Both the position numbers and the translations under genes were made by a program. The notes beneath the pieces are model-generated. The model was given only the letters and a program-made list of their open reading frames with translations. It was not told the DNA's origin and did no database searches. Positions 6,036 to 58,456 of a DNA stretch of 64,000 nucleotides are shown here, in pieces; the first letter of the stretch is position 1, and the number at the start of each line of letters is the position of its first letter. Origin of the DNA: an uncultured Erysipelotrichaceae bacterium (GTDB lineage Bacteria > Bacillota_I > Bacilli_A > RF39 > UBA660). The DNA lies in the NCBI GenBank assembly GCA_902764545.1, contig CACWWC010000008.1, positions 9,191 through 73,190 on the forward strand, read 5' to 3'.

Positions 6036-6073
6036 AATATATAGCACAATATTATTATTAAGGTGGTGTAAAA

Positions 6074-7450: not shown

Positions 7451-7469
7451 GAGGAACATTATAATTTAG

Positions 7470-10291: not shown

Positions 10292-10305
10292 TAAAGGAAT
10301 TACAT

Positions 10306-13300
10306 ATGATGAGTAAAAATATTAAAAGGTTAACGATTTTTAATATAATTATTATAAGCATAATCAGTGTATTAGGCATTGTTATGCTTTTTAACCCATC
10401 ATATGCAAGAAACCTAGCCAATGAATATTATAGCACTTGGGATGGAGAAACAGTATCCACGACTTTATCAGGCTCTGGAACATCATCAGACCCATACGTT
10501 ATAAGTAATGGAGCAGATTTAGCCTTTTTCTATAAAAATTGTACAAATAGTAACTGGAACGATAGATATTACGTACTTGATAATGATATATACTTGAATG
10601 AAGGATATTTCGACTATATTGATGATGGCAATTTTAAGTATCATCTAAATAATAAAACTTACTATATCGCAAAAGACAAATATTACACAACAAAAGATGA
10701 TCTAAATAGTGAAACAAATGGTCAAAACATACACGTATTAAAAAATAGAAAATATGACCCATTCTATGGGACATTTGATGGCAATGGACATGCCATAATA
10801 GGCATGTTTTTTAACGACTCTAATGCAGATAGCAATCATTTTATAAGTCATAATTATGGTGTAATTCAAAATGTTAAGTTTTTTAATTCAATAATTATAT
10901 CAAAGAAAAATAGTTCATTGATAGGTGATATCTATGAATCAGGCACAACAAAAAATATTGTTTTTAATGGAACAATAAAAAATTATGCTGTAGGTAATGC
11001 AGGCATTATAGGTACTGTTGTTAATAAAGGCAATATTTCAAATATTGCTATGCACGGTAGAGTTGAAGGATATGGAAATATAGGAGGCATAGTTGGAAGA
11101 TATGTAACACCAAATTCAGGTTTAAGTAGTATATTAAATATCAGCAATAGTTATAACACTGCAGAAGTTATATCTGATAATGTAGCTGGCGGAATTATTG
11201 GAAAAAGTGAAAATACAAACTATTTAAATTTAACAAACGTCTTTAATACGGGAAACATTTTGGGAGAATACTCTGGAGGAGTTTTAGGATATCTAACATC
11301 AACATCAGTTGCTAATAGCATAAATTTTACAAACTCATTTTCAAGTAATGCAGATAATTTTATTGGATATATTCCAATTAGTGCTACAATACATGCAAGC
11401 AATAATTACTACACTAATGCGAATACTAAAGCCGTAGGAAATTATAGTACAGCAGTTTCAGGAATTGAATATAAACACTACATGAATTTATTTGCTACAA
11501 ATAACCTTTCATCCATGGGATATTTACAATATGATGAAAATCAAGTATCTAGTGGTTATATATGGAAATATAGACTTTATCAATCTCCATATTTGTATTT
11601 TGATGATGTAACAAAACCAGATGTCACAATAAACTACAATACCAATACATGGACACCAAGCAATAACAGTAGGACAATCTCAATAATTACTGCTAACTCC
11701 ACAGGAAATATAAGTGTATCAGTAAGTGACGATAGTGATATAGCAAAGATAGAATATTACATCAAAAATAAATATGATACTACAACAGAAAATATAGAAA
11801 ACCTTGATTTAAAGTTGTACACAGATGATACGACATTTACCGTAGAACCCAATACTTGTCAAACAATATATATAAAGGCAACAGATATTTATGGAAACAG
11901 TAGTTACGCCTTTTCTGATATGATATTTTATGATGCTTATGTACTAGATTTTAGTGAAGGAATAAATCACAATTCGTTAGGAATAAAAAGTAATACAATT
12001 TTTAAATATTTTACAAAAAATTCAGAAATAAACATAAGAGGAAAACACTCAGTTAATACTGACTCCTATATTTATAACGCAGACAATAAAGAATATATGT
12101 ATTTTTATTATATTCCACCAACTGGAACAGTAATGACATTATATGATTATACCAAGAACAAAATATATAAATATACTGTCAACAATACCAGTGACTTTTC
12201 ATACAATTATTCAGGAGTTTCACTTTATAGGTTAGATTTATCAGTATTTAAGTCAATTTATGATAGCAGTATCGCTTATGATAATACTGTATATGGGCAT
12301 TACGACTCAGTAAAAAAGAAAATAGATGAAGATTTTGAAATATCATTTGACTTTTCAAAATGCTCCTTCCCAAATTCATATGTATTAAAAGGATATATAA
12401 GATCGTATTCAACAACAAATCAAACTGTAGTAATGTCATATAGAAGTTCAATTTTTGAATTTGAATTAATGACTGATCAAGAGGCAGAATATTCATTAGA
12501 AATAATTCCTGATTCTACAAATGCGATTGATAATATATCAAATACAATTAGCATGGACTTAGTACTAACAAAACAGTTAATGAATACCCAAAATTCAACA
12601 TATACACATGAAGATACTTTTATATATGATCCTTCATTTTTTAATGCAGACTATACTATTGTTCTTAAAGTAGTTGATGAAAATAATAACGTTATAAAAA
12701 GTACTTCCGGTAATAATATTTCTTACCAAATAAAAAATGGTGCATCATTCAATAATAAAACTGATAACAATGCTTATATGAAAGTAAACATTCCAGCTCG
12801 GAGCTATAGCTGGTATAATATGTTTGGATACCGAGGCATGGTATCATTTAAAATAAAAGTTCTAAACAATAGATATATTGATATTGCAAATGGAACATAT
12901 CAACTAAATGTATATCTTCAAGACTTAAGTGGTACAACTATAGCAACAGCACAAACTCCTTTGACAGTAAGTAAAGCCATACAAATAAATAATGCAAGTT
13001 ATAACTTCGCTATTACAGATAAAAATGATAGAATAATAGAGGCAGGAGAAACAGCAGCGGGCAATAACTATATGGGATTTAACTATACACTTTCACTTAA
13101 TAATCCAACCAGTTCCTCCTTACTTGTTAAAACATATAAAATAGAAGAAGTAGATGATGAAGTAGTAAAAACCGAGGTTAATCCATCAACAATTTTTAAT
13201 TCTACATATAATTTTCCGGTTTTAGATAACTACTATTTACTTCAAATAAATCATCACAATCTTGATAATGTTTTAAATATTAAAAGTGACACTCCTAGCG

Positions 13301-13380
13301 GAGTTTATGACGTTGAGATATTTTTTCAGAATAATGGAAAAATACAAACAAGTGAAAACTTTAACATTTTAGTCAAATAA
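10306..13380 (+). CDS. 1024-aa secreted protein with SipW-type-like signal and GLUG-motif (beta-helix-like) repeat region
   Basis: N-terminal TM helix ending PSYARN. Repeats NAGIIGTVVN / NIGGIVGRY / NVAGGIIGKS / SGGVLGYL (about 10.98-11.34 kb) resemble GLUG motifs. Long Ig-like/beta-rich remainder. Confidence 0.6.
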   Translation: MMSKNIKRLTIFNIIIISIISVLGIVMLFNPSYARNLANEYYSTWDGETVSTTLSGSGTSSDPYVISNGADLAFFYKNCTNSNWNDRYYVLDNDIYLNEGYFDYIDDGNFKYHLNNKTYYIAKDKYYTTKDDLNSETNGQNIHVLKNRKYDPFYGTFDGNGHAIIGMFFNDSNADSNHFISHNYGVIQNVKFFNSIIISKKNSSLIGDIYESGTTKNIVFNGTIKNYAVGNAGIIGTVVNKGNISNIAMHGRVEGYGNIGGIVGRYVTPNSGLSSILNISNSYNTAEVISDNVAGGIIGKSENTNYLNLTNVFNTGNILGEYSGGVLGYLTSTSVANSINFTNSFSSNADNFIGYIPISATIHASNNYYTNANTKAVGNYSTAVSGIEYKHYMNLFATNNLSSMGYLQYDENQVSSGYIWKYRLYQSPYLYFDDVTKPDVTINYNTNTWTPSNNSRTISIITANSTGNISVSVSDDSDIAKIEYYIKNKYDTTTENIENLDLKLYTDDTTFTVEPNTCQTIYIKATDIYGNSSYAFSDMIFYDAYVLDFSEGINHNSLGIKSNTIFKYFTKNSEINIRGKHSVNTDSYIYNADNKEYMYFYYIPPTGTVMTLYDYTKNKIYKYTVNNTSDFSYNYSGVSLYRLDLSVFKSIYDSSIAYDNTVYGHYDSVKKKIDEDFEISFDFSKCSFPNSYVLKGYIRSYSTTNQTVVMSYRSSIFEFELMTDQEAEYSLEIIPDSTNAIDNISNTISMDLVLTKQLMNTQNSTYTHEDTFIYDPSFFNADYTIVLKVVDENNNVIKSTSGNNISYQIKNGASFNNKTDNNAYMKVNIPARSYSWYNMFGYRGMVSFKIKVLNNRYIDIANGTYQLNVYLQDLSGTTIATAQTPLTVSKAIQINNASYNFAITDKNDRIIEAGETAAGNNYMGFNYTLSLNNPTSSSLLVKTYKIEEVDDEVVKTEVNPSTIFNSTYNFPVLDNYYLLQINHHNLDNVLNIKSDTPSGVYDVEIFFQNNGKIQTSENFNILVK

Positions 13381-13394
13381 TGAAAGGAGTAAAA

Positions 13395-13946
13395 ATGAAA
13401 AACAAAATAAAATATGCACTACTCCTATTAATTGTTTTACTTTTATTTTATACTATTAAAGGAAGTTATGCCTTATACAACAGCATAGCTAATGGCAAAA
13501 TAAAAGACGAAAATAATTCTCAAGAAATAATAGCAAAATTTATTGTAAATAATCAATTGTCGGATAGCATTAATTTCGAAATAAGCGATTTATCTCCGGG
13601 AGACACAAAAACTTTTAATTTCAGTGTATCAAATACCATTAATACCACTCATTCAGATGTTTCTATAAAATATAAAATCAATATACACTCATATAGTTTG
13701 CCACTAACATATATTTTGACTCAAGACCAAAATACTAACAATTTACTAACATGTTCTGGAGAAGTAGATATTTCATGTGAAAGTAGTGAGCTAATCATGA
13801 ATTATAATGACAATACAATTAAAAACTTCACACTAAAAGTTACACTGCCAGAAGCAAATACAAATGAAGAGGCATTTGACTACACATATGCAAATAATAT
13901 TGATATTGTAACATTAACAATTGATTCATGGCAGATTATTAGCTAA
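13395..13946 (+). CDS. Small TasA/camelysin-size secreted protein with SipW-type-like signal (protein D)
   Basis: ATG 13395 lies 5 nt after AAGGAG. The track ORF starts at 13380, overlapping the upstream stop. TM helix ends GSYALYN. ISDLSPGDTKTFNFSVSN and C-terminal TLTIDSWQ resemble TasA strands (LKPGD...N, ...FEATQ; recalled from memory). Confidence 0.6.
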   Translation: MKNKIKYALLLLIVLLLFYTIKGSYALYNSIANGKIKDENNSQEIIAKFIVNNQLSDSINFEISDLSPGDTKTFNFSVSNTINTTHSDVSIKYKINIHSYSLPLTYILTQDQNTNNLLTCSGEVDISCESSELIMNYNDNTIKNFTLKVTLPEANTNEEAFDYTYANNIDIVTLTIDSWQIIS

Positions 13947-13960
13947 AGGATGTGATAGAA

Positions 13961-15019
13961 ATGAAGAAAGGAAGCTATATTATATTTATATCTATTTTTT
14001 TCCTGATAATTATAGCGATAATTTTAACAATCTTTAAATATAGTCAGGCAAAATACCGGAAGTCTGATACATGGGACTATAACTATGATACATCAGGATT
14101 TTATATATCAAGTAACTTTCTACAAGATACCAATTATGACGTATATAACAGTAATAATAATTTGGATTATACATATATTACATATCTAAACTTTGATACT
14201 AATGCATTAAGCTTTAAAGTCTATAATTATCAATCTGATACCCAAATAAGCAAAGAAAATATTAAATATAATATCTCATGCGAAATACAAGGTGAAGAAG
14301 CTCATACATGTTTTATAGATGGTTCACCAAGTAGTAAAGGAAATATAAGTCTAAATAAAGCATACACTTGTTCCGTAAGTGGATTAACTGAAGAAGAATG
14401 TAAAAACAATCAAAATGCAACCCTTACATACAATAAACAAATTAATACTCATGATATCTCAATACAAAGAGCTTCATCATCAAATTCAGATACATTAATC
14501 GTAAATATAATCTTAACAGTCACATATCCATACAAAAAAGTTTTAAAAGGAAATTTAATGTTAAAATACAATGAGGATGAGCAGGGAATAAACATTGCAA
14601 ATATATCTAGCAGTGACTATCAATGCGAATACATAGTTACAAATTATGGTGGAGCGACTTACCCCAGTGTTACTCTAAAAGGAATAGAAAGTAGCGTACT
14701 TTTTCAATCAAATAACTTGACTGAAGTAACAAGATATATGAACAAATATGATAGGTGGAAAGTAAAAGTTAATAAAAGCAAATATATCCCATGTTCAAAA
14801 GCTATATACCAATATACAGGAACAAACTACCTTTTTGGTGATGCCAACAACGATGGCAGAACCGATACATTGGATGTAAACAGAATAGATAAACATATTT
14901 CAGGTAATGAGCTTTTAACTGGAGTAGGCTTTATAAATGCAGATCTTAATAATGATGGAGCAGTAAATGATTACGATAAATTATTACTTCAAAGATATAT
15001 ATCTAACCCAACTATGTAA
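13961..15019 (+). CDS. Secreted protein with C-terminal type-I dockerin module (protein E)
   Basis: ATG 13961 lies 10 nt after AAAGGA (track GTG 13952). N-terminal TM helix ending YSQAKY. C-terminus (14837-15016) has two Ca-binding loops, GDANNDGRTDTLDVNRI and ADLNNDGAVNDYDKLLL. Confidence 0.65.
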   Translation: MKKGSYIIFISIFFLIIIAIILTIFKYSQAKYRKSDTWDYNYDTSGFYISSNFLQDTNYDVYNSNNNLDYTYITYLNFDTNALSFKVYNYQSDTQISKENIKYNISCEIQGEEAHTCFIDGSPSSKGNISLNKAYTCSVSGLTEEECKNNQNATLTYNKQINTHDISIQRASSSNSDTLIVNIILTVTYPYKKVLKGNLMLKYNEDEQGINIANISSSDYQCEYIVTNYGGATYPSVTLKGIESSVLFQSNNLTEVTRYMNKYDRWKVKVNKSKYIPCSKAIYQYTGTNYLFGDANNDGRTDTLDVNRIDKHISGNELLTGVGFINADLNNDGAVNDYDKLLLQRYISNPTM

Positions 15020-15026
15020 ACTATAA

Positions 15027-15076
15027 AAAATGTATCGGAAGAAATTATACAATATATTCTCGATACATTTTTATTT
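15027..15076 (+). terminator. Rho-independent terminator
   Basis: AAAATGTATCG / CGATACATTTT stem around a long loop, followed by TTTTATTTT. Confidence 0.65.
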
Positions 15077-15134
15077 TATACCAAATTACATATTTTGATA
15101 TATGAGTACATTAATAAACCATCTATTATAATTA

Positions 15135-15163
15135 TTGAATTGGTCTTTTTTTTGATGTATAAT
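15135..15163 (+). promoter_or_regulatory. sigma-A type promoter
   Basis: TTGAAT (15135-15140), 17-nt spacer ending in TG, TATAAT (15158-15163). Confidence 0.6.
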
Positions 15164-15180
15164 TATGATAGGGTGATAAG

Positions 15181-15813
15181 ATGGAGAGGATAGAGTTAAA
15201 AATATTTGCATTAATAATATCTATATTTGTCTTATTGTCAAATATCAACTCAAGTTACGCAAGATATTTATCAGAATCAACAGGAACGGCAGACATTGAT
15301 TTTAGTACCTGGAAAGTACTTGTAAATAACACTGATATCACAAACAGTACAGTTACAAATATGATTATAACACCTACTATTATTTCAAATAGTAATGTAA
15401 GAAACGGTACACTAGCACCAGGATCTATAGGATATTTTGATCTTATGATTGACTGTTCTAATGTTGAAACTTCATTTAACTATCAGATTAGCATTAATAA
15501 AACCGGCGAAATTTCAAATTTAAAGGTCATTGGTTATTCTCCAAATAATACATCTACAACGCCATCAGTATCATATAAAAATACAACTAATCATACATAC
15601 CCAGATACAAACACAATATCAGTTAATAAAACATTGCCAACAAGTGGAACATTTTCCACATTTTATGTAAGAATCTTTTTTCAATGGATTGATAATTACA
15701 ATAATTTAAATACTGATATAAATGACACATCAATTGGTTTGAAATCTGCAAATAATCAAACAATTAACTATAATATAAGTGTGACACTTCAATTCAGACA
15801 AATTTCTTCATAG
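15181..15813 (+). CDS. Small TasA/camelysin-size secreted protein with SipW-type-like signal (protein F)
   Basis: TM helix ending SSYARYLSE, DIDFSTWKVLVNN first strand, LAPGSIGYFDLMIDCSN, C-terminal ISVTLQFRQ (TasA-like terminal strand). Confidence 0.6.
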   Translation: MERIELKIFALIISIFVLLSNINSSYARYLSESTGTADIDFSTWKVLVNNTDITNSTVTNMIITPTIISNSNVRNGTLAPGSIGYFDLMIDCSNVETSFNYQISINKTGEISNLKVIGYSPNNTSTTPSVSYKNTTNHTYPDTNTISVNKTLPTSGTFSTFYVRIFFQWIDNYNNLNTDINDTSIGLKSANNQTINYNISVTLQFRQISS

Positions 15814-15907: not shown

Positions 15908-17863
15908 ATGAAAAAAATACTATTTTCAAAACAAAGTATTATTATATCTATGACTATTTACCTAATGATGATATGTTTTTTTTCAATACTAGTTATTAGC
16001 AAAAATAACTATGGTGTAACACAATTTGGAAATAGATTTTTTATAAGTGCATCATCTAATAATAAGCTATATGGATATAAAGAAGGAGATCTAATTGAAA
16101 TAGAAAAAAAGAACATTAGTGAACTGCATGATGGTGATAATGTTTATATCTATAAAATGCAAGAAAATGAAAAAAAAATAGATATAATCAATTCCCAGGT
16201 ACAACAAGTACATGCTGAATATCCAAACAGTTATGTAATATTAAAAAATGACAACTACCGCTGGGAAGAAAAGTATATTGTTGGGATATCAAGAAATATA
16301 TACCCTAAAATGGGATACGTAATGACGGCTCTAACATCAAGTTGGGTATTTTTTATATTATTTTTTATCCCTGCAGTAATCATTTTTATATATGAAATCT
16401 ACACTCTATTTAATGAATTAAAAAAACTTAAAAAAAACAATATTAGTATAGAAAAGGAAGATGAAAAAAAAGAAATCAATCAACAAGAAAACAAAATACT
16501 AAATAATAACACTCAACCTATTAACCAACGGTTTAATATTGAGTCTCAAAAGTTAATAAGTGAAAAAGAAAACAATATTGGTGATAATATCATGGACGAA
16601 CCAATTATTATTATCCCCAATATAAAAGAAAAAGGTGACTATATAACAGATGAAAACATTGAAGATGAGCTAAGTACTATTACAATTAGTGATGAATTAA
16701 ATAAAGAAAATGAAAGTGAACCAGAAGAAAAAACTAATAATAATAAAACTGATAATGAAGATAGTCAAGAAGTGAATTCAGATGAATCTAGTAATAACAT
16801 AAAAACAGAAAATGAGCCAATAGTTATAGGAAAAGGTATTAAAAATTTTATTTTAAAAATACTAGAATTAAAAAAGTATGAAATATTTGATATTTTATCA
16901 ATTATTAATAATGCGAAAAATCAAACGTTTCCACAATCGGTATTAAAAAATATTATTTCAACATATGTAATGGATAAATATATTCAGCCAATTGATTATA
17001 ATGAAGAAGATTTTAAAAATAAAAATAAAATTCTTATAGAAAAAATAGAAAAATATGCATCTAAAAAAAGAAATCTCGATTCAACTCAAAAAAAAGAGCT
17101 CACAGAAACGTTATTATTCTATAATAAACTAAAAGAGGATTATAGTAACTTAAATAAAGAAATTACATCATTTATTACATTTGAATCAGAAGATGATAAA
17201 AAAATAATTGTAGACTGTATAACAGAAAAAGGTAAAAGCTACATAAAATTAAGAAAAGCGTTTACAGAAAGAATTTCAGCATCAAAAATGTTTCAACTTA
17301 TCGTAAGTGACACGATAATAAAAAAAGTCTATAATACACAGTTAAAGTCAAATATTAAATTTAGTAAAATATTTAGTGAATATGTTATTGATAAATCGTA
17401 TAGCCAATCAGTTGTACTAGAAAATTTAGAAGAAGTTCTTTTGAAATTGGTAGGATCTATGCTTATAAAGGAATTATTTAATGGTGATTATGAAAAACAG
17501 TACATTATTCACTTTAATGAAACACTATATAAGAAGGAAAGAAAAATTAACAATTTTATAGATAATTTCAATGATCCTTTTTCTCAGAAAAAAATATTAA
17601 TATTAATTAATGCTGATAATATAAAAAAGAATAAAAATATTTTGGATAAATTAAAAAATCAAGGATTTAATTTTGTCATTCAGCTACCAAAGAAGGATCT
17701 TATGAATGTTGAATTTGACAGAAAAATTCTAAACATAGCAGAATACATAATAATTATTGGTAATTTAACCGAAGGAGAAAAAAAGACATTAATACCCGTA
17801 AGTATGATTCCAAAGGTATATTGTATTAATGAGGCCATTGACAGTGAGGTGATTAAAGCATGA
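15908..17863 (+). CDS. Bitopic membrane protein: SipW-like ectodomain lacking the canonical catalytic motifs, plus ~470-aa cytoplasmic domain (protein G)
   Basis: TM1, then FGNRFF...EGDLIEIEKK...GDNVYIY...NDNYRWEEKYIVG aligns by eye to the SipW-like J/M proteins but lacks the GSM and THR contexts. TM2, acidic linker, then a large domain of unknown function. Stop overlaps the next start (ATGA). Confidence 0.6.
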   Translation: MKKILFSKQSIIISMTIYLMMICFFSILVISKNNYGVTQFGNRFFISASSNNKLYGYKEGDLIEIEKKNISELHDGDNVYIYKMQENEKKIDIINSQVQQVHAEYPNSYVILKNDNYRWEEKYIVGISRNIYPKMGYVMTALTSSWVFFILFFIPAVIIFIYEIYTLFNELKKLKKNNISIEKEDEKKEINQQENKILNNNTQPINQRFNIESQKLISEKENNIGDNIMDEPIIIIPNIKEKGDYITDENIEDELSTITISDELNKENESEPEEKTNNNKTDNEDSQEVNSDESSNNIKTENEPIVIGKGIKNFILKILELKKYEIFDILSIINNAKNQTFPQSVLKNIISTYVMDKYIQPIDYNEEDFKNKNKILIEKIEKYASKKRNLDSTQKKELTETLLFYNKLKEDYSNLNKEITSFITFESEDDKKIIVDCITEKGKSYIKLRKAFTERISASKMFQLIVSDTIIKKVYNTQLKSNIKFSKIFSEYVIDKSYSQSVVLENLEEVLLKLVGSMLIKELFNGDYEKQYIIHFNETLYKKERKINNFIDNFNDPFSQKKILILINADNIKKNKNILDKLKNQGFNFVIQLPKKDLMNVEFDRKILNIAEYIIIIGNLTEGEKKTLIPVSMIPKVYCINEAIDSEVIKA

Positions 17864-19419
17864 CAATTTTTAGGTTTCTATATGAAATATTATCTGTACT
17901 CTTTCAAGGTGTAATATACATATTTAAAGGATTATTTAATGGAATAAAAACAATTTTTTCTTTTGGAGACTATAAGAAAATCATTGATTTCTATTCAAAA
18001 GAATTAAATATAAGCGAATGGATACTAGTAACAATCTTAATTGTGGTATTAATTTTGATAGTAGGTTTAATTGCTTATATATTATATTACTTATTAAGAA
18101 AGTATATAATATTGAAAAAGAAATTGGTAAACCAAGAGTCACTGCTTGAAGAAATAAATACATTAAATGATCAGGTTGAAGGACTAGTTAAAGAAAATGA
18201 AAAAATAGCAGAAATATATTCTGGAATTACACCAAATTCTAATAATGGAAAGATAGGAGGCGCTAATGTTAATCCTATAAATCCAAATGAGCCACAAGTT
18301 GAAGGAGAAGAAGTAGAACAAGAAGAAGAGGTTGCAGATGAAAACATAAGATTCCCACAATTGTATAGAATTGATAAATTAAATAAAAAGACAAAAATAG
18401 TAAACTACAACAATACACAAACGTTGCCAGAATTGGTAGACGACTTTAGATGCTTTTCTGCAAGTCAATTACATCTATACTATAATGTAGAAATGATTCG
18501 TGTATTCTTCGGTGGACTAGCATGTGGTAAAATGTTAATATTCCAAGGTATTTCTGGTACAGGAAAAACATCCCTTGCATATGCATGGAGCAAATTTAAT
18601 AAATCGGACCCATGTATAGCATCAGTGCAACCTTCATGGCGTGATAGAACCGATTTCTTTGGCTACATGAACGAATTTACGAAAAGATTTAATGAAACAG
18701 GGGCTTTAGTTGAATTATATAGTGCATTATACGATGATAGATGTCACACAATTGTACTAGATGAAATGAATCTGGCACGTGTTGAGTACTATTTCGCAGA
18801 AGTACTATCAATACTTGAAATGCCAAATAGAGCAGAATGGATTGTTAGCCTTGTAACTAACACTGTTGAAAATGATCCAGTTAAACTAAATAATGGTAAA
18901 ATACGATTAAATGGAAATGTATGGTACATAGGAACAATCAATAACGATGATTCAACATTTGCAGTTACTGATAAAGTTTATGATAGAGCAATGCCTATTG
19001 ATATTAATACCAAAATCGATCCATTTGATTGTAGAAACCAAGAGGCCCTAGATTTAAATTCGGTTTATCTTGAATCATTATTTCACAAGGCATGTGAAGA
19101 TTTTCCAATATCTGAAAAAAGTCTTAAAAGCTTAAGTACAGTCGATAGTTTTATGATAACCAACTTTAAAATATCTTTTGGTAATCGTATCATGAAACAA
19201 TTAAACATATTTGTACCGGTATATGTTGCATGTGGAGGAGATGAAGTTGGAGGAATTGACTATTTCGTTGCAAAAAAAATATTACGTAAACTGGAACAAC
19301 AGAATATAGCATATATTCGTGACGCAATTGATCCATTCATAGAAGAATTGAATAGATTATTTGGAAAAGACAAAATGAAAGAATGTATTGAATACGTTAG
19401 TATGTTAAAGAAAGGTTAA
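17860..19419 (+). CDS. Membrane-anchored McrB-like (AAA_5/dynein-related) AAA+ ATPase (protein H)
   Basis: Hydrophobic N-terminus plus TM helix WILVTILIVVLILIVGLIAYILYYLL, coiled coil, acidic linker. Walker A GISGTGKTS (18547-18573). Walker B and downstream IVLDEMNLARVEYYFAEVLSILE (from 18751), a signature I recall from McrB-family ATPases. Confidence 0.7.
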   Translation: MTIFRFLYEILSVLFQGVIYIFKGLFNGIKTIFSFGDYKKIIDFYSKELNISEWILVTILIVVLILIVGLIAYILYYLLRKYIILKKKLVNQESLLEEINTLNDQVEGLVKENEKIAEIYSGITPNSNNGKIGGANVNPINPNEPQVEGEEVEQEEEVADENIRFPQLYRIDKLNKKTKIVNYNNTQTLPELVDDFRCFSASQLHLYYNVEMIRVFFGGLACGKMLIFQGISGTGKTSLAYAWSKFNKSDPCIASVQPSWRDRTDFFGYMNEFTKRFNETGALVELYSALYDDRCHTIVLDEMNLARVEYYFAEVLSILEMPNRAEWIVSLVTNTVENDPVKLNNGKIRLNGNVWYIGTINNDDSTFAVTDKVYDRAMPIDINTKIDPFDCRNQEALDLNSVYLESLFHKACEDFPISEKSLKSLSTVDSFMITNFKISFGNRIMKQLNIFVPVYVACGGDEVGGIDYFVAKKILRKLEQQNIAYIRDAIDPFIEELNRLFGKDKMKECIEYVSMLKKG

Positions 19420-19433
19420 AATAGGTAAATAAT

Positions 19434-20672
19434 ATGGAAAACTATTCATTAAAATATGAAAATCAATCTGATTTGTTTAATGATAAGTTCTTTAAAAATA
19501 TAAATCAAAGAGAACTTCTATCATCAGATTATACAGGATTAATAGTTAGCTTTGATTGGTTTGATTTAATCTTTGGAACTATACCATATGTAAACAATAT
19601 ATTTAATGATTTAAAATCATTCCTAAAGGAAGAAGAAGAAATACTTAAAATAGAAAAGGTTCGTAAAGTTGGACCGCCAACGTTCAAACATCTAGCTAAA
19701 CATACAAACTTTATTCAAGAATATGATGAAGAAAAAAATAAAATAACACCATCTAAACTTCTAAACACGTATAAGGAAGATACATTCAATACCTATGAAA
19801 ATCGTTTTATTTGTACTCTTGTTGATGAGCTGGCAATATTTTTGGAAGATATAAAGAATCAATTAACAGCACATGATACACATAATGAAGATTCATTTAC
19901 GTTTAATAGTAAAACCAAAGCAGATGGTGAGGAGATTTCATTCAATTTTATGCTAGATGCAAAAACAGACAGGTCGTCAGGCCTTGAAGAATTTGAGGCA
20001 AAATCAGAAATTGTAATGAATAATGTTAAGTCTTGGAGAGACAGTTTACTATATAAAACTCTAAAAAAAGAAAAAGCACCTGCAGTATCAGATCCAATTA
20101 AAAGAACTAATGTAATTTTAAAAAATCCAAACTTTCAAATGGCAGCTAATTTATGGGACTTTATTCACAACTTTAGTATAGATGCACATACCATAGAAAA
20201 CAATAGAGATGTATACAATCAATTACCAACAGTTTTCAATGATAAAGTTAATAATACTTTTTTATGTTTTTACTACATTATGAAATATACATGTGCAAAG
20301 AATAATTATCAAAAAGATATATATAACAAAGAATTAAATAAACTATTTTTGAAAGATATAAAAGAGAATATAAGATCACTTGCTAATGGAGATGATGCGT
20401 TAACAAAAGAAGATCTTGTAAATTTAGTAACATCAGAATATGATATCGTTAAAAAAGAAAAAGTAGTAGATTATTCAATGGTTGCAAATAAAATTAACAG
20501 TAGCTCAAAGAAATTTATGGATAAAATGGATTCAAGTTTCTTCCAAATAGGTGGAGATGGAGCAACACTTAATATGACACTCGACGAAGAAGAAGATAAT
20601 AAAGAAGAGAAAATCATAGTTGATGATATTGATAAAACATCAAGCAACTCAGGAGATGAAGAAAATGATTAA
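19434..20672 (+). CDS. Cytoplasmic partner protein, possibly DUF2357/McrC-like (protein I)
   Basis: No TM helix. NTYENRFICTLVDEL resembles the conserved core of DUF2357 McrC-like partners (memory-based). ADGEEISFNFMLDAK (LDAK at 19953-19964) could be a D...D-x-K nuclease remnant. Acidic tail. 14 nt after H, and overlaps J by 8 nt. Confidence 0.45.
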   Translation: MENYSLKYENQSDLFNDKFFKNINQRELLSSDYTGLIVSFDWFDLIFGTIPYVNNIFNDLKSFLKEEEEILKIEKVRKVGPPTFKHLAKHTNFIQEYDEEKNKITPSKLLNTYKEDTFNTYENRFICTLVDELAIFLEDIKNQLTAHDTHNEDSFTFNSKTKADGEEISFNFMLDAKTDRSSGLEEFEAKSEIVMNNVKSWRDSLLYKTLKKEKAPAVSDPIKRTNVILKNPNFQMAANLWDFIHNFSIDAHTIENNRDVYNQLPTVFNDKVNNTFLCFYYIMKYTCAKNNYQKDIYNKELNKLFLKDIKENIRSLANGDDALTKEDLVNLVTSEYDIVKKEKVVDYSMVANKINSSSKKFMDKMDSSFFQIGGDGATLNMTLDEEEDNKEEKIIVDDIDKTSSNSGDEEND

Positions 20673-21444
20673 AAATATTTTAAAAATAATAATGAAAATA
20701 TTAAAAATAGCATTAATTATAATAATTGTTTTATTCGCATCATTTGTATTACTACAACGTTTTTCCAACAATAACACATCCATATTTGGATATAGAATGT
20801 TTGCAGTTGTAACAGGTTCAATGGAACCAGTATATAGTGTTGGCGATGTTATACTATGTAAGGAAGTTGATACTAATAAATTAAAAGTTGGAGATGATGT
20901 TACATATTTAGGTAAAGAAGGCACTTTTAAAGATAAAGTCATTACACATAGATTAAAAAACATCACAGAAAAAGATGGAAAAAAGATATTTTACACACAG
21001 GGAGTTGCAACTAACAATATCGATCCACCTATAGAAGCAAGTCAGATATATGGTAAGGTATCAAGAAAATTATTAATTTTATCAGCATTTCACAGTTATT
21101 CTAGTACTAGCATTGGTTTTTTCCTATGTGTAATAATACCTATAATGTTATTAGTTGGAACCGAAGTAGTACAAACGATGCTTGAAAAACATGAAGAACA
21201 GCATGAAAAACATAATGAAATACAACAAAACAGCCAACAAAACAATTATACAACAGAGCAATTAAAACAAGAATTAGAATCGCTACAACAAATGGTAGAT
21301 GTTCAAAATGAACAATATGAAGCGAGGATAGCAAATAATGCACAAATGCAACCTCAAACTGTAGGAGTAAATAATATGAATGTGCAAGCACAGCCTCAAG
21401 CAGTAGGAGTAAATAGCACAGCCTCAAGCAGTAGGAGTAAATAA
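20665..21444 (+). CDS. SipW-like (ER/archaeal-type, S26B) signal peptidase I with frameshift-truncated Q/P-rich repeat tail (protein J)
   Basis: ATG 20665 lies 9 nt after AGGAG (track start 20620 sits inside the upstream gene). TM helix, VVTGSMEPVYSVGD (Ser box), ITHRL (His box), TQGVATNNID, second TM helix. Tail of 14-aa QPQxxGVNN repeats ends prematurely at a 28-bp duplication. Confidence 0.75.
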   Translation: MIKNILKIIMKILKIALIIIIVLFASFVLLQRFSNNNTSIFGYRMFAVVTGSMEPVYSVGDVILCKEVDTNKLKVGDDVTYLGKEGTFKDKVITHRLKNITEKDGKKIFYTQGVATNNIDPPIEASQIYGKVSRKLLILSAFHSYSSTSIGFFLCVIIPIMLLVGTEVVQTMLEKHEEQHEKHNEIQQNSQQNNYTTEQLKQELESLQQMVDVQNEQYEARIANNAQMQPQTVGVNNMNVQAQPQAVGVNSTASSSRSK

Positions 21445-21619
21445 TATAAGTGCACAAGTGCAACCTCAAACTGTAGGAGTAAATGGTATAAATGCACAAA
21501 TGCAACCTCAAACTGTAGGAGTATATAATATAAATGCACAGGTGCAACCCCAAGCAGTAGGAGTAAATAATATAAGTGCACAAGAGCAACCCCAAGCAGA
21601 AATAGACAGTAGTAAATAA
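21340..21619 (+). repeat. 42-bp (14-codon) tandem coding repeat array, about 6 units, interrupted by a 28-bp duplication
   Basis: Units such as GCACAAATGCAACCTCAAACTGTAGGAGTAAATAATATGAAT. After 21416 the array continues in the +1 frame to a TAA at 21617-21619. Confidence 0.9.
21388..21443 (+). repeat. Perfect 28-bp tandem duplication causing a frameshift
   Basis: GCACAGCCTCAAGCAGTAGGAGTAAATA occurs at 21388-21415 and again at 21416-21443. 28 is not a multiple of 3, and the stop appears at 21442-21444. Confidence 0.9.
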
Positions 21620-21676
21620 AATAGAGATAATCATTTACAGGGATTATAAACTTTGGTGGTAAAAGGAAGTGATAGT

Positions 21677-23002
21677 ATGAAACTGACTGAAAGAATGAAG
21701 TCTAAGTTAAGAAAAGTCAACTTTACATCAGTTGCATTTTTTGCTGTTTCCGTAATTTCTATCACTTTCGCATGGTTAGCATACAGTAATACTATTGCAA
21801 CCAATTTGGATGTTGATATTAAAAGATGGGATATCAATATAACAACTGGAAACACTGAAATAACCAATGAGTATGATATTAATGTTGACTCATTTTATCC
21901 AGGAATGGATGATTATAGTGACTCATTTACAATAAGAAATAACGGTGATTTAGCAGCCAAGATAGATTATAATATTTCATATTTCAGATTATTTGATCAA
22001 GAAATACCAACAAATAATTTAACATTTTATGAATTGCAAAGAGACTACCCATTTAAAATATCACTAGATTATGATACAAGATATTTAGGAATTAATGATA
22101 CAGCAACATTTAGCATTTCATGTGAATGGCCATTGGACTCCGGTGATGATGCAGCAGATACTTTATATGGAAATATGGCATCAGAGTTTTATGCTCAAGA
22201 ACAACAGATAAAAGCAAATAACCCATCATATGAAATAAGAAAAGGCCTAGAATTGAAAATCGAAATTGTAGTAAGTCAATATATTGATGAGACAAACTCA
22301 TTTGCGACTGACTCTTGGGACACTATTCAACTGGCAGTAGAAAAAGGAGATACAAGCAAATATAGTGTTGGAGCCACAAAAAATGTAAGAGTGGGAAACA
22401 AAAACCTTAAAGTAAAAATTGTAAATAAATCAGCACCAACATCATGTAATGGGGATTCATTTTCACAAACAGCATGTGGCTTTGTTTTAGAATTTGAAAA
22501 TGTTATTGAAGAAAAAAAGATGAATTCTTCAAATACAACTAACGGAGGATGGCCAAATAGTGAATTATATGAGTATTTGCACGGTGACTTTTTCTCAACC
22601 AAATTACCATATGAACTGAGAAAAGTAGTAGCAACAACACGTGTTGTTTCTGGGCATAACTCAAATGAAACAACAAATTATGTAACTTATGATAAATTAT
22701 ATTTGTTTTCCAAAAAAGAATATTATGGAGTAAGTGCACAAGATACCGCAGCAAACTCCACTAGGCAGATTGATTGGTATGTTGGTATGTCATCTACACC
22801 AATATATAATAGTGGAAGCCTTGTTGGACATGCCTACTTAAAAATGAAAAAGCTCGATTCATTAAACAACCCAAAAACATATTGGTTTCGTTCGGTAAAT
22901 GGTACACAATTGTTTGATGCGGTATATAGTAGTTCAATTTATTCTCCAAGAGCGGCAAATGAACCAAATGTTTGGTTTGCTCCTGCTTTTAGAATCACAT
23001 AA
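21677..23002 (+). CDS. Secreted fusion: TasA-like N-terminal domain with SipW-type signal plus DUF6273-like C-terminal domain (protein K)
   Basis: ATG 21677 after AAAGGAAGTGA. TM helix ending ITFAWLAYS. FYPGMDDYSDSFTIRNNGDLAAKIDY (TasA-like strand). The C-terminal half from about 22310 (GGWPNSELYEYLHGDFFSTKLPYELRKVV) resembles the W..S.lR.wLN-type DUF6273 domain. Confidence 0.6.
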   Translation: MKLTERMKSKLRKVNFTSVAFFAVSVISITFAWLAYSNTIATNLDVDIKRWDINITTGNTEITNEYDINVDSFYPGMDDYSDSFTIRNNGDLAAKIDYNISYFRLFDQEIPTNNLTFYELQRDYPFKISLDYDTRYLGINDTATFSISCEWPLDSGDDAADTLYGNMASEFYAQEQQIKANNPSYEIRKGLELKIEIVVSQYIDETNSFATDSWDTIQLAVEKGDTSKYSVGATKNVRVGNKNLKVKIVNKSAPTSCNGDSFSQTACGFVLEFENVIEEKKMNSSNTTNGGWPNSELYEYLHGDFFSTKLPYELRKVVATTRVVSGHNSNETTNYVTYDKLYLFSKKEYYGVSAQDTAANSTRQIDWYVGMSSTPIYNSGSLVGHAYLKMKKLDSLNNPKTYWFRSVNGTQLFDAVYSSSIYSPRAANEPNVWFAPAFRIT

Positions 23003-23100: not shown

Positions 23101-23130
23101 TTTACAATTTGATTTCGAGTGTGCTATAAT
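23101..23130 (+). promoter_or_regulatory. sigma-A type promoter
   Basis: TTTACA (23101-23106), 18-nt spacer, TATAAT (23125-23130). It covers the track ATG at 23129, which supports the downstream start at 23162. Confidence 0.55.
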
Positions 23131-23161
23131 GATAATTGATAAAAAGGATAGAGGTATAACT

Positions 23162-24196
23162 ATGAAGAAGGTATTACGAATCATTCGAAATATTATTTTT
23201 GGCGTTATTTTTGTTGTGTATCTCTCAATAATCATTTGCGTAAGTACTTTGGTTTTAAATCGTAATGATTATGGATATACAGAGTTTGGAAATAAAGCAT
23301 TAATAGATATTAAAGAAAATACAGGAAATTATTTAAAAGGACAACTAGTAATAGTTGAAAAAAAGATTATTGATAACTTGAAAGCGGGCGATGAAGTCTT
23401 TGTATATGAGACAAACCAACAAGAAAAAACAGTAAAAGTGGTTTCTTCAACTATAAAAGAAATTAATAAGGAAGAAACTACCCCATATATAACATTAGAT
23501 GTAGATAATACAGCCTGGGGACAGGATTATATTGCTGGACAAAGCACAAAAATGTATGAATCTATAGGGGGCATACTAACATTTGTTGAGTCTAAATGGA
23601 TATTCTTTGTAATATTTATTATTCCTTGCTTTTTTATCTTATTATATGAGATTTATTCTGTAATTATTGTCATAAAATTCGATGGTGATGAAGCAATACT
23701 AGAAAATCCTAATGTTATCAGTGGTGATCAAAAAGATAAGGTGGATGATATTTCTGTATTGATGAGTGAAATAACTAATTTGAAATCTCAGCTAAATCAA
23801 AATGCCCAGCCTATTATGAATCAAAACTTAACTCAGCAATCAATGCAACCACAAACTATAGGAATTAATAGTGCGAATGCACAAGTACAACCACAAGCAG
23901 CAGGAGTAAATAATATAAATGCACAGGTGCAACCACAAGCAGCAGGAGTAAATAATATAAATGCACAGGTGCAACCCCAAGCAGCAGGAGTGAATAATAT
24001 AAATGCACAAGCGCAGCCCCAAGTTGGAGGAGTAAATAATATAAATGCACAAATGCAGCCCCAAGTTGGAGGAGTAGATAATATAAATGCACAGGTGCAA
24101 ACATCACAGAATACAAATATTGCTAATTCAAATTCAGAACAGCCACAAATTATTCAGACATCAGCCCAAACACTTGATTCACAAAATAATCAATAG
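23162..24196 (+). CDS. Bitopic membrane protein: SipW-like ectodomain lacking catalytic Ser and His, plus Q/P-rich 14-aa repeat tail (protein L)
   Basis: ATG 23162 after AAGGATAGAGG. FGNKALIDIKENTGNYLKGQLVIVEKK...AGDEVFVY...VDNTAWGQDYIAG aligns to the SipW fold, but GSM and THR are absent. Second TM helix. Tail AQVQPQAAGVNNIN x ~6. Confidence 0.65.
   Translation: MKKVLRIIRNIIFGVIFVVYLSIIICVSTLVLNRNDYGYTEFGNKALIDIKENTGNYLKGQLVIVEKKIIDNLKAGDEVFVYETNQQEKTVKVVSSTIKEINKEETTPYITLDVDNTAWGQDYIAGQSTKMYESIGGILTFVESKWIFFVIFIIPCFFILLYEIYSVIIVIKFDGDEAILENPNVISGDQKDKVDDISVLMSEITNLKSQLNQNAQPIMNQNLTQQSMQPQTIGINSANAQVQPQAAGVNNINAQVQPQAAGVNNINAQVQPQAAGVNNINAQAQPQVGGVNNINAQMQPQVGGVDNINAQVQTSQNTNIANSNSEQPQIIQTSAQTLDSQNNQ
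23837..24100 (+). repeat. 42-bp tandem coding repeat array (~6.3 units), homologous to the array at 21340-21619
   Basis: Units at 23879-23920, 23921-23962, 23963-24004, 24005-24046 and 24047-24088, e.g. GCACAGGTGCAACCACAAGCAGCAGGAGTAAATAATATAAAT. Confidence 0.9.
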
Positions 24197-24248
24197 AATA
24201 ATCAATTTAGCTGGTAAATAATACTATAAATAATAAGAAGGTGGTTTG

Positions 24249-24959
24249 ATGGCAAAGAAAATAGTTAATCTGATATTGAACATTTCAATTGTTTGCGCTT
24301 CAATAATTTTATTTGTTACCATCTTTTTAGATATTCAAACGACAGTATTAAAAAAAACATATAAATCATTTTTTGGATATTCTCTTTTTGAAATAAAAAC
24401 AGGAAGCATGAGCAAAACGATTAAAATAGGAGACTGGATATTAGTAAAAAATACCAAAGATGTTGACCTAAATGATATCATAACATATGAACAAAATGGT
24501 AATTTTATAACACATAGAGTTATACAAAAATATCAAGGAAACATTACTACGAAGGGGGATTCCAATAATACTATAGATAAACCTATAACTAATACGCAGG
24601 TTGTTGGCAAAGTAATCAAGGTATTACCAAAATTTGGTATAATAAAAAGTGTACTTTTAAATAGTGAAGTATTGATTCCATTTATTATTACAATATTTAT
24701 TATTTGTTTAATAATTGATGATAAAAATAATAAAAATGAATCATATATAAATAGATTTAAATCTTTATTTAAAAAAAGAGATAAAAATATAAATAATAGA
24801 ATTAAGGACATACCAATTCCTCAGAAAAATGATGAATCAATGACAACTATTTTAAGTAAAGTAGAAATTGATAATAATAATGAGGTTTATAGCAGATTGA
24901 AGGAAACAAAAAATGAAGAAGAGGATGATGATATTCCAAAAATAATCAAAATCATATGA
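24249..24959 (+). CDS. SipW-like (ER/archaeal-type, S26B) signal peptidase I, canonical motifs (protein M)
   Basis: ATG 24249 after GAAGGTGG (track TTG 24246). TM helix, IKTGSMSKTIKIGD (Ser box), ITHRVI (His box), TTKGDSNNTIDKP (GDxN..D box), C-terminal TM helix and K/N/E-rich tail. Confidence 0.8.
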   Translation: MAKKIVNLILNISIVCASIILFVTIFLDIQTTVLKKTYKSFFGYSLFEIKTGSMSKTIKIGDWILVKNTKDVDLNDIITYEQNGNFITHRVIQKYQGNITTKGDSNNTIDKPITNTQVVGKVIKVLPKFGIIKSVLLNSEVLIPFIITIFIICLIIDDKNNKNESYINRFKSLFKKRDKNINNRIKDIPIPQKNDESMTTILSKVEIDNNNEVYSRLKETKNEEEDDDIPKIIKII

Positions 24960-24978: not shown

Positions 24979-26175
24979 ATGAATAAAAAAGGAAAAAAAA
25001 GAATGCGAAGATTAATGATTTTATTCATAATGATTCTACTCACTTTATCTATATTGTTAGTTGGAACATATGCATGGTTTATTGGATTAAGAACAGTAGA
25101 TGTTTCAGAATTTAGCGTTACCATAACAGGAGTTGATGGGTTAGAAATATCTCTAGATGGTGAAAATTGGAAGATAGAAGGTGAGCCTTTACATATCAAT
25201 TCAAGTACAATCATTAATACAACATCCACAACGGATGATCATGCATATTCAGGGCATAAAAATATATGGCCAAGTGATGGGTTAGTACCGTTATCAACCA
25301 ATGGATTAATGGATGCGACAAACAGTAGATTAATACTATATGAAAAGACCGGATTGCCACCATCACCAGGAGGCTATGGAATAATATCAAACAGACTAGA
25401 TAACACTGGAACAGACGAAGCAGACGGATATGTCGCATTTGACTTGTTTCTTAAAAATGGAAAAGGTTCATCATACAATGAAACGTATGATCCAAATGCA
25501 GATGAAGATATTTATTTGACAAGCAACTCATATGCTAACAGTACACCAAGTGGTAGTAGTGAAGAAGCTTATGGAATTGCTAACTCAATAAGGATAGGTT
25601 TTTTCCAGATAGGACGAATAAAATCAAGCGGATATAGTTCATCAATATTAACTGGAATAACATGTAGTGGAGGGGAACATATTACAACAACTTGTACCAA
25701 TAGTACAAATTTAGACGAAAGAAGGGCCAAAACATGGAACATATGGGAGCCAAATGATTCAACACACGAAAGTAATTTAGTTCAACTTTTCAATAGAATA
25801 TGTAAGAAAAGAAGTGCAACGGGAGCCTACCTAGAAACCTCTTGTGATACTCTGACAGCTACAAGTAGTAATTTAACCTATGCAATAAATCAACCAATTA
25901 CTTCAACAGATCAAGTAGATGTTTATGATGGAAATAATGGGTACACTTCAGCAAAACTCACAGAAATGAATACATATAAAACAAATGACGCTGCAAATTA
26001 TGCAAGTGATAAAAAACAACTATTAAAAATTGCTGGAAATAGTGTAACAAAAATTAGAGTATACATATGGTTAGAAGGGCAAGACGTTGATAACTATGAT
26101 TTAATTGTCAATGATGCAAATGTGGCAATTAAATTTGGCTTTACAAAAGATAAATATGGTATTTCAACTACGTAA
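24979..26175 (+). CDS. Expanded TasA/camelysin-like secreted protein with SipW-type signal peptide (paralog A4)
   Basis: GTYAWFIGLRTVDVSEFSV, YVAFDLFLKNGKG, NSIRIGF, IWEPNDSTH, RVYIWLEGQDVDNYDL, KFGFTKDKYG. Confidence 0.65.
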   Translation: MNKKGKKRMRRLMILFIMILLTLSILLVGTYAWFIGLRTVDVSEFSVTITGVDGLEISLDGENWKIEGEPLHINSSTIINTTSTTDDHAYSGHKNIWPSDGLVPLSTNGLMDATNSRLILYEKTGLPPSPGGYGIISNRLDNTGTDEADGYVAFDLFLKNGKGSSYNETYDPNADEDIYLTSNSYANSTPSGSSEEAYGIANSIRIGFFQIGRIKSSGYSSSILTGITCSGGEHITTTCTNSTNLDERRAKTWNIWEPNDSTHESNLVQLFNRICKKRSATGAYLETSCDTLTATSSNLTYAINQPITSTDQVDVYDGNNGYTSAKLTEMNTYKTNDAANYASDKKQLLKIAGNSVTKIRVYIWLEGQDVDNYDLIVNDANVAIKFGFTKDKYGISTT

Positions 26176-26191
26176 ATAGGATGTGTATAAT

Positions 26192-26890: not shown

Positions 26891-26895
26891 TTAAT

Positions 26896-55250: not shown

Positions 55251-55269
55251 TAGTGCGGGAGGTATTCTA

Positions 55270-56619: not shown

Positions 56620-56638
56620 GTAAGAAGGAGATATGTAA

Positions 56639-58057: not shown

Positions 58058-58092
58058 TAATAAAAATATGAATATGTAAGGAGAAAATGAAT

Positions 58093-58380
58093 ATGGCAAA
58101 ATATGTATGTGATACAGATACAGTCAAATCTATTGGTGAAAAATTATGCCAAACAGCATCAGATATTAGTAATGGAGTACAAAGCTACTCATCATCAATT
58201 GAAAGTGATTTATCAACATGGACGGGAACAGCTAAAGAATCATTTAACAGCTCAAATGCGACTTATGTTACAACAGCAAAAACAGATGCGACATATATAA
58301 ATGCTCTAGGTGAATTTGTAAAAAATGCTGCTGAAAGCATCCAATCTCTAGAAGATGAATTAGCAGGATTACAAATTTAG
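58093..58380 (+). CDS. WXG100 (ESAT-6-like) family protein
   Basis: ATG 58093 lies 9 nt after AAGGAG (track ATG 58087 is only 3 nt after it). 95 aa, helical, DLSTWTGTAKESF (W-x-G). Confidence 0.75.
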   Translation: MAKYVCDTDTVKSIGEKLCQTASDISNGVQSYSSSIESDLSTWTGTAKESFNSSNATYVTTAKTDATYINALGEFVKNAAESIQSLEDELAGLQI

Positions 58381-58456
58381 GTGTAAAGATACTGCCAATT
58401 ATATTGTGTTAATGAAAAATATGTTTTATAATGAATTTAGATAGGAGGAATAGATT

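Follow-up and report, generated by a model that had tools for sequence, protein, structure and literature searches.

What is a relative of the restriction GTPase McrB doing in an operon for secreted proteins? The question is raised by a stretch of 64,000 nucleotides from an uncultured Erysipelotrichaceae bacterium (contig CACWWC010000008.1, positions 9,191 to 73,190), the whole of which is called the window here. The window is AT-rich, with a GC content of 24-35%, and a long same-strand gene array spans about 4.8 to 28.3 kb of it. The 18 genes of this operon, named A1 to A3 and B to P, all lie on the + strand and encode secreted proteins and SipW-type signal peptidases as well as an McrB-family AAA+ protein, H (17860-19419), and a DUF2357 protein, I (19434-20672). 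A preliminary description of H and I had left two readings side by side: a McrBC-type motor exapted for envelope or fibre biogenesis, and a membrane-tethered, McrBC-like defence module nested in a surface-structure operon.

We favour the first of these, and consider it probable that H and I are a McrBC-derived GTPase machine which no longer restricts nucleic acids and which serves as the cytoplasmic-face component of SipW-dependent secretion and assembly of surface proteins or fibres. The synteny of H, I and SipW, the conservation of H and the absence of a nuclease all point this way, while the second reading finds no support, there being no nuclease in I or in its neighbours and the gene order being fixed. 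The architecture has already been named CoCoPALM (PMC11090510), and the preliminary remark that either reading would be unusual therefore overstated its novelty.

The McrB-family GTPase H

The reading frames of H (519 residues) and I (412 residues) are found where the preliminary description had placed them, and all four peptide strings quoted in it are present; in H these are GISGTGKTS at residues 230-238 and IVLDEMNLARVEYYFAEVLSILE at residues 298-320. Its proposal that H is an McrB-like AAA+ protein is supported by family models, by sequence searches of the PDB and by profile-profile alignment. The NCBIfam McrB model matches residues 195-411 (E = 1.4e-6). McrB chains are the sole significant matches in the PDB for H alone (E = 4e-5), and again for a 30-sequence profile of the H family (E = 1.6e-5). 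With hhalign, the family profile is paired with E. coli McrB at a probability of 96.9% (E = 1.8e-10, 225 columns), against 3.3% for the MoxR ATPase RavA, where the P-loop alone is aligned. No VWA protein of the MoxR partner type is encoded at the locus.

The predicted fold is less selective. A Foldseek search with the AlphaFold2 model of H (predicted local distance difference test, pLDDT, of 72) retrieves the AAA+ group comprising MCM, MoxR, dynein and McrB (the helix-2-insert clade), with weak TM-scores throughout (0.56 at most). McrB ranks 11th, slightly below MoxR and MCM chains, and has the highest sequence identity to H, 17% vs at most 13% for MoxR and MCM. Since McrB is ranked no higher than MCM or MoxR, the fold leaves the family of H undecided and the sequence profiles decide it. 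The preliminary description had named a best match to a non-McrB AAA+ clade as the outcome that would speak against its proposal: by sequence and profile H is clearly McrB, and it is in the fold ranking that MCM and MoxR stand above McrB.

The AAA+ GTPase core and a C-terminal helical domain occupy residues 161-519 (18340-19416). Walker A (G230-S238) follows the pattern G-[ILM]-S-G-T-G-K-[TS], Walker B reads L-D301-E302-M-N304 and aligns with D279/E280/N282 of E. coli McrB (EcMcrB), and the sensor-1 signature, T-x-N361-x-D363-[D/E]364-S-T, aligns with EcMcrB N333/D336. None of the catalytic residues, R376 included, varies among 30 close homologs, and each is kept by 143 or more of 147 representatives drawn from 50%-identity clusters; within the signature, N361 and D363 are each kept in 143/147 and [D/E]364 in 139/147, while the position following N361 is variable. 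In place of the R347-R348-R349 of EcMcrB, the H family has D-R376-A, so that one trans-acting arginine remains. In EcMcrB, D279, E280 and N282 are catalytic residues, R348 and R349 form a pair, and, by comparison with R425/R426 of TgMcrB, R347-R349 are taken to supply the sensor II-like residue and the arginine finger (PMC7680126). By these alignments H keeps every cis catalytic residue of McrB, and GTP is the predicted nucleotide.

The preliminary description had also noted hydrophobic helices and a coiled coil at the N-terminus of H in place of a DNA reader, with which both hydropathy and the AlphaFold2 model agree. Residues 3-79 (17866-18096) run from an N-terminal helix through a short loop to the main transmembrane (TM) segment, with a basic stretch following. 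The first helix (residues 3-21) is the weaker one, hydrophobic or amphipathic, and the strong TM segment lies at about residues 54-79 (Kyte-Doolittle maximum 3.29); the basic stretch directly after it, RKYIILKKK, puts the GTPase part in the cytoplasm by the positive-inside rule. Helices are modelled at residues 2-23, 25-32 and 35-49 and, without interruption, at 53-117, and R5, E9, G17 and G28 are invariant among the 30 close homologs. The following segment, residues 80-160 (18097-18339), consists of a short conserved coiled coil (residues 80-117, with heptad-like L95/I99/L102/V106/L109) and an acidic disordered linker (residues 118-160), pLDDT being below 50 for residues 88-156. No DNA-binding family of Pfam or NCBIfam matches residues 1-160. 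Where McrB has its DNA-binding domain, H thus has one or two membrane helices followed by a short coiled coil.

This N-terminal region is the starting point for one alternative, namely that H and I act in cell division or envelope biogenesis through an FtsB-like TM segment and coiled coil, with no involvement of the secreted proteins. The corresponding region of CoCoPALM proteins has been described as FtsB-homologous (PMC11090510), and H has the same layout of TM segment plus short coiled coil. However, the similarity is not reproduced for H, which has no Pfam DivIC/FtsB match at E ≤ 0.1 and is paired with E. coli FtsB by hhalign at 0.8% over 18 columns; moreover, the coiled coil of H is predicted to be cytoplasmic, on the other side of the membrane from that of FtsB, and the conserved neighbourhood holds no division genes. 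We regard a role in division as very improbable.

Relatives of H are numerous, at least 8000 in a protein database clustered at 90% identity, and an exhaustive search at E ≤ 1e-30 groups them into 670 clusters at 50% identity. Among the matches listed, full-length relatives of 505-531 residues with at least 55% identity come from metagenome-assembled genomes (MAGs) labelled Bacilli, Mollicutes or similar. Several relatives differ in their N-terminal part. P0247 has a signal peptide, an extracellular region of about 280 residues, a PT linker and a TM segment, and an extracellular domain placed across the membrane in this manner is consistent with trans-membrane coupling; a metagenome scan for the context of this variant gave ordinary H-type loci only. 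P0322-type relatives have four TM helices before the GTPase domain, and P0289 and P0313 have about 430 residues of K/E-rich coiled coil with no TM segment, as in CoCoNuTs.

The DUF2357 partner I

Protein I matches Pfam DUF2357 over residues 53-150 (E = 2.3e-13; 50.4 bits vs a cut-off of 23.3), as the preliminary description had supposed from the string NTYENRFICTLVDEL, which lies at residues 119-133. DUF2357 has been equated with the N-terminal domain of McrC (PMC11090510). In an alignment of 36 family members with 28-83% identity, the motif Y121-E122-N123-R124 is conserved, E166 is invariant and sits at the turn of a long predicted β-hairpin (residues 150-178), and a further conserved block extends from P221 to W241 (PIKRTNVILKNPNFQxAxxLW). 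The AlphaFold2 model (pLDDT 74.8) is composed of hairpins, four long helices (residues 266-367) and a disordered acidic tail (residues 368-412). Hydropathy analysis finds no TM segment in I.

A possible D-x11-D-A-K motif (ADGEEISFNFMLDAK, residues 163-177) had been put forward as the remnant of a PD-(D/E)xK nuclease. The motif is present but unconserved: D164, D175 and K177 all vary among the 36 homologs, leaving E166 as the only invariant position, and on these grounds the nuclease idea fails. The accompanying statement that I lacks an obvious full nuclease domain does hold, as no nuclease family matches the protein and its model, all-helical in the C-terminal region, contains neither a nuclease fold nor any nuclease-type α/β domain.

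Gene order and conservation

A scan of GTDB, with one genome per species, gave at least 587 confirmed matches to H; the confirmed matches listed are all from uncultured Bacilli, "Tenericutes" or Erysipelotrichaceae-type MAGs, including a closed genome of 1.26 Mb. Synteny was counted in 84 of these loci. I follows H in 82 of the 84, which is every untruncated one (82/82), the contigs of the other two ending early. A SipW-type peptidase comes next in 81 loci, a K gene is present in 66 and an F-type gene in 61, and genes for A-type subunits lie within 10 kb of H in about 36-38. The order H-I-SipW is also kept in divergent loci of human-gut metagenomes, in which H has 38-42% identity. In one variant locus (L080, 9989-21148), H and I are followed by a 2761-residue homolog of the secreted protein C with the same type of signal anchor, and there is no SipW within 10 kb; with a protein C homolog in that position, the link to secreted proteins holds there too.

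The reading frames are closely packed. The stop codon of G overlaps the start of H (ATGA), 14 nucleotides separate H from I, and J starts 8 nucleotides before the stop of I, preceded by AGGAG; the G/H and I/J overlaps indicate that the genes are translationally coupled. A promoter and terminator scan of the operon found no + strand terminator-like site between the G, H, I and J genes, a scan that is uninformative in such AT-rich DNA and yields fewer promoter-like sites than the shuffle expectation.

Across species and within the same loci, identities are about 50-57% for H, 26-35% for I and 35-50% for SipW; PcrA, at 63%, can be compared in L041, the sole locus with PcrA in reach. Judged by these identities, no gene of the locus is as well conserved as H, which looks housekeeping-like. 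The core of G-domain (the cytoplasmic part of G, described below), H, I and SipW is fixed across several hundred species-level genomes. An ATPase of the HerA/FtsK type (DUF87) stands beside H and I in two distant genomes (L003, 14530-16026, - strand; L080, 8091-9863, - strand); none is encoded in the window, and this may be coincidence or an optional partner.

The second reading of the preliminary description has to be weighed against this conservation. It would make H and I a membrane-tethered anti-phage or anti-plasmid module, a relative of the Type IV restriction systems McrBC and CoCoNuT, placed inside a surface operon and acting through an unrecognised effector. The ancestry of H in a restriction GTPase is in keeping with such a role, as are the long K/E-rich coiled coils, like those of CnuB, in the closest TM-less relatives of H, and since surface structures are phage receptors, the co-location of a defence module with them is conceivable. 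The best match of H among PADLOC models is also a defence candidate, PDC-M26A (E = 1.1e-30). This match, however, extends over residues 205-328 of H and positions 314-438 of a 724-position profile and so covers P-loop to Walker B only; no other gene matches PADLOC, I, G and B in particular matching no model, and the literature searched holds nothing on PDC-M26. Defence islands are typically patchy and shuffled, whereas the order G-domain, H, I, SipW is fixed over several hundred species with overlapping reading frames, and H evolves slowest of the locus genes. Furthermore, I lacks a nuclease domain and its putative catalytic residues are unconserved, and family searches give no nuclease, HEPN or DNA/RNA-binding match for any of the 18 operon proteins, unlike the rule for CoCoNuTs, in which nuclease-less McrC homologs are always accompanied by HEPN or another nuclease (PMC11090510). 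Mainly because the effector is missing and the synteny is invariant, we consider a defence function improbable.

Signal peptidases and the G-domain

Four SipW paralogs are encoded in the window. J (20665-21444), an active SipW-type (archaeal/endoplasmic reticulum-type) signal peptidase I, matches TIGR02228 with E = 3.5e-25, and M (24246-24959), the second active one, matches TIGR02228 with E = 4e-17 and Peptidase_S24 with E = 2.6e-6; both retain the TGSM and THR motifs in the alignment. G (15908-17863) and L (23129-24196) are SipW-like pseudo-peptidases. Aligned with the active paralogs, both have TGSM and THR replaced and are thus without the catalytic Ser and His, so that two of the four paralogs are predicted to be catalytically dead. 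G, for which the NCBIfam SipW match is weak (E = 5e-6), consists of a TM segment at about residues 9-33, an extracellular S26-like domain, a second TM segment at about residues 135-169, and a cytoplasmic domain of about 350 residues, referred to as the G-domain.

The gene directly upstream of H always carries a G-domain of about 330 residues, as counted in 65 loci. In 38 loci the domain is a protein of its own (304-394 residues, mostly 325-365), and at least 21 loci have it as a cytoplasmic extension of an active SipW. The family has no Pfam match and no match in a profile search of the PDB. Inspection by eye had suggested a degenerate EAL domain of cyclic di-GMP signalling, an idea that was left unsupported by the PDB profile search, by hhalign against PdeH and by Pfam. 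GGDEF-like motifs can be seen by eye in two proteins downstream of the operon, RTGGDEF and RTDGNEF (33582-34577 and 40207-42249), and a cyclic di-GMP link of these to the operon through the G-domain was not found in the PDB profile search or with hhalign against PdeH. A Ras/Roc annotation in Pfam on one G-domain homolog, P0403, was distrusted because the G-domain of the window has no such match; the sequence looks like a chimeric contig of 1.5 kb.

The cytoplasmic tails of J and L are made of a 42-nucleotide tandem repeat (21352-21599 and 23876-24100) encoding 14 residues of the type NAQVQPQAAGVNNI. L holds 5.4 copies of this Q-rich repeat common to both proteins, and the array of J extends beyond its stop codon at 21444. 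J products of 270, 293, 294 and 336 residues occur in strains with an identical I protein, which indicates that the length of the tail is strain-variable.

Secreted proteins of the operon

A1, A2 and A3 (4818-8501; 343-458 residues), N and P are paralogs, which share an N-terminus composed of a basic stretch, a TM segment and an invariant TYAWF; A1-A3 are presumed to be the major fibre subunits. N and P lie at the other end of the array (24979-28296) together with O, a small secreted protein. Genes B to F occupy 8678-15813. In B no TM segment is seen by eye in the translation, while C (1024 residues), D (188 residues), E and F are secreted accessory proteins with signal motifs of the S/T-Y-A-(R/L/K) type. 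Related S/T-Y-A-x or F-A-W motifs are read from the translations of C, D, E, F, K and O, that of the secreted protein K (21653-23002) being the SipW-type TFAWLAYS; K also has a DUF6273 domain (Pfam, E = 9e-11). SipW is known to cut the signals of TasA and CalY, GTWAAF and GTFAYF, and by analogy with TasA the A, N and P proteins may form a donor-strand fibre. D matches Peptidase_M73 (camelysin) with E = 0.011, below the cut-off.

E (13952-15019) ends in a type I dockerin (Pfam Dockerin_1, E = 5.5e-10). Such a domain was not expected among fibre genes, and it may point to docking of accessory proteins of the cohesin type.

Relation to known systems

The locus is a typical member of CoCoPALM. This class was named in one paragraph by Bell, Sahakyan, Makarova, Wolf and Koonin (eLife 2024, PMC11090510; preprint 2023), who linked it to pilus assembly and deferred its analysis to a "forthcoming publication"; we found no such follow-up paper, and the supplementary files examined hold no CoCoPALM entries. 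The published signature of the branch is NxD, usually with E or a second D next (PMC11090510), and it is matched by N361-x-D363-[D/E]364 of H. Like the published class, H has an N-terminal TM segment and coiled coil, it adjoins a DUF2357 protein with four long coiled-coil-like helices, and a signal-peptidase family is tied to the locus, with J and M active and G and L pseudo-enzymes. It is because these testable features are all present, and those of canonical McrBC, CoCoNuT and MoxR systems fail, that the locus is assigned to CoCoPALM. The exception is the published FtsB homology, which neither Pfam nor hhalign reproduces for H. To the published class the present analysis adds a fourth core component, the G-domain, and the fusion of this domain to SipW, as well as the absence of a conserved nuclease remnant, the single-arginine active site, the dead peptidase paralogs, and the breadth and conservation of the module.

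Canonical McrBC (EcoKMcrBC; PDB: 6HZ4, 6UT6, 7VSR) has in common with H and I the AAA+ core, with Walker A, D-E plus Asn in Walker B and an Asn/Asp sensor-1 loop, and a partner of the McrC N-terminal (DUF2357) type encoded directly downstream. It differs in that McrB has a DNA-binding domain where H has the TM segment and coiled coil, in its signature (N-x-x-D vs N-x-D-D in H) and in the R348/R349 pair vs one arginine; in addition, I has no PD-(D/E)xK nuclease, and the context is one of secretion and fibre genes, not of defence or restriction-modification. CoCoNuTs (CnuB/CnuC) belong to the same NxD branch of McrB, have coiled coils on both subunits and often have McrC homologs without an active nuclease, and the TM-less, long-coiled-coil relatives match H at E of about 1e-70. 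However, CoCoNuTs are cytoplasmic and have very long coiled coils, whereas H is TM-anchored with a coiled coil of about 40 residues, and no nuclease or HEPN protein is present among the operon products here.

The tapA-sipW-tasA system of B. subtilis (with camelysin/CalY and C. perfringens BsaA-C) resembles the locus on the secretion side, in that a dedicated SipW is encoded with its secreted substrates and an (S/T)-x-A-aromatic motif comes just after the signal TM segment, as in TasA GTWAAF. The Bacillus system has no NTPase, though, and the subunits here are larger (343-469 residues), have no detectable similarity to TasA or Peptidase_M73, and are accompanied by several SipW paralogs, dead ones included. 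Type IV pili and type II secretion systems are comparable as a functional analogy only: there a cytoplasmic hexameric NTPase, a membrane platform and a dedicated signal peptidase build a surface filament, but PilB and GspE are secretion-type ATPases unrelated to McrB-like AAA+ proteins, and the signal class and the side of cleavage differ.

Proposed mechanism

Structures of McrBC provide the ring and insertion analogy on which our model is built (PMC7680126, PMC6624300); in the published model, hydrolysis is rotary and sequential, as compared to F/V-ATPases, and McrC inserts a Lys/Arg (PMC7680126). As in McrBC, six copies of H would form a ring, here pinned beneath the membrane by the TM helices and coiled coils. 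One copy of I would put its β-hairpin into the pore of the ring, where a basic residue brought against the N/D signature would trigger GTP hydrolysis, proceeding sequentially round the ring. Relative movement of I and the ring might be relayed by the coiled coils, the TM helices and the SipW-attached G-domain to the outer side of the membrane, where SipW would cut the TYA|WF-type signal anchors of the A, N and P subunits. Cleavage would free an N-terminal strand for polymerisation by donor-strand exchange, by analogy with TasA, at a cell-anchored site. With the motion of H coupled to cleavage by SipW in this way, GTP hydrolysis would gate or drive the growth of a cell-anchored fibre. The functional analogue would be the trio of ATPase, platform and prepilin peptidase of type IV pili. 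In C. perfringens, a type IV pilus gene set has been tied to secretion of a SipW-associated biofilm matrix protein (PMC11580942), which we take as an earlier instance of a matrix protein processed by SipW and exported with the help of an NTPase.

A more far-reaching version of this model is offered tentatively, as a possibility that we rate below the general one: the H6-I ring and the SipW-fused G-domain might be the engine of a pathway of pilus biogenesis, not recognised before, in gut Bacilli with cell walls and small genomes. Transmitted across the membrane, GTP hydrolysis would tie the cleavage of signal peptides to the polymerisation (or retraction) of donor-strand-type filaments, driven from their base.

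Several observations weigh against a McrBC-derived machine for fibre assembly. Ring formation, insertion of I, use of GTP and the link to fibre assembly are all steps that we infer. In B. subtilis, SipW and TapA suffice for the assembly of TasA, so that a motor is not obviously needed for a fibre of this kind. A likeness of A, N and P to TasA or camelysin had to be given up at the level of sequence, as neither Pfam nor the PDB gave a match and D alone has its sub-threshold camelysin hit. On the side of the GTPase, Foldseek does not set McrB apart from the AAA+ folds of MCM, MoxR and dynein type, the PADLOC model that H matches best belongs to a defence candidate, and the chemistry of hydrolysis may differ in H, which has the single R376 in place of the R348/R349 pair. 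For I, neither the PDB profile search nor hhalign against E. coli McrC finds a match to a solved McrC, and Foldseek of its model against the PDB returns noise only (TM-score 0.11 at most); its relationship to McrC therefore rests on DUF2357 and on the literature.

Some of the same facts could be accommodated by a regulatory role, in which H and I would be a GTP switch or checkpoint that does no mechanical work and, for example, permits SipW to act, or the operon to be expressed, according to nucleotide status or envelope signals. The single arginine at the sensor II/arginine-finger position of H would suit a switch, as would its shortened NxD motif, which is predicted to modulate the hydrolysis rate (PMC11090510). 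Two dead SipW paralogs out of the four in the window suggest scaffold or regulatory roles, and TasA-type fibres elsewhere need no motor. Against this stand the invariance of the full hydrolytic set (the Walker A Lys, the Walker B D-E, N304, N361 and D363), the retention of an activator-type partner in I, and the combination of a hexameric AAA+ fold with a membrane-spanning coiled-coil geometry, as mechanical transducers typically have. Switch and motor cannot be told apart by the present sequence data; we think a pure switch unlikely.

Other features of the window

Two further regions were inspected by eye. Upstream of the SipW-type array, at 1849-3760, are a Cna-B/pilin-like surface protein with a sorting-signal-like C-terminus (VPNTA, TM segment, KNRKK) and a sortase-like open reading frame, which together suggest that a second, sortase-dependent pilus may exist in the organism. 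Far downstream, 54300-60831 holds a cluster of paralogous secreted or toxin-like proteins with near-identical N-terminal helical regions and shuffled C-terminal modules (open reading frames 55270-56619, 56639-58057, 59127-59954 and 60046-60831), resembling a polymorphic toxin array of the LXG/WXG type.

Implications

If the assignment of H and I to surface protein assembly is correct, the locus would clearly exemplify the recruitment of a motor from a defence system, McrBC, to a housekeeping role at the cell surface, with loss of the DNA reader and nuclease and gain of a membrane anchor and a signal-peptidase-linked partner. If the pilus pathway proper were also true, it would constitute a new class of filament assembly beside the chaperone-usher, type IV, sortase and curli pathways. 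The match of H to PDC-M26A of PADLOC means that defence-prediction tools can mistake loci of this type for defence genes. Targets for experiment are K236, E302, N361, D363 and R376 of H, E166 and the P221-W241 block of I, and the G-domain. Since several hundred species of small-genome, uncultured gut and rumen Bacilli have the module as a conserved core gene set, any fibre that it builds is probably central to the attachment or interactions of these abundant organisms.

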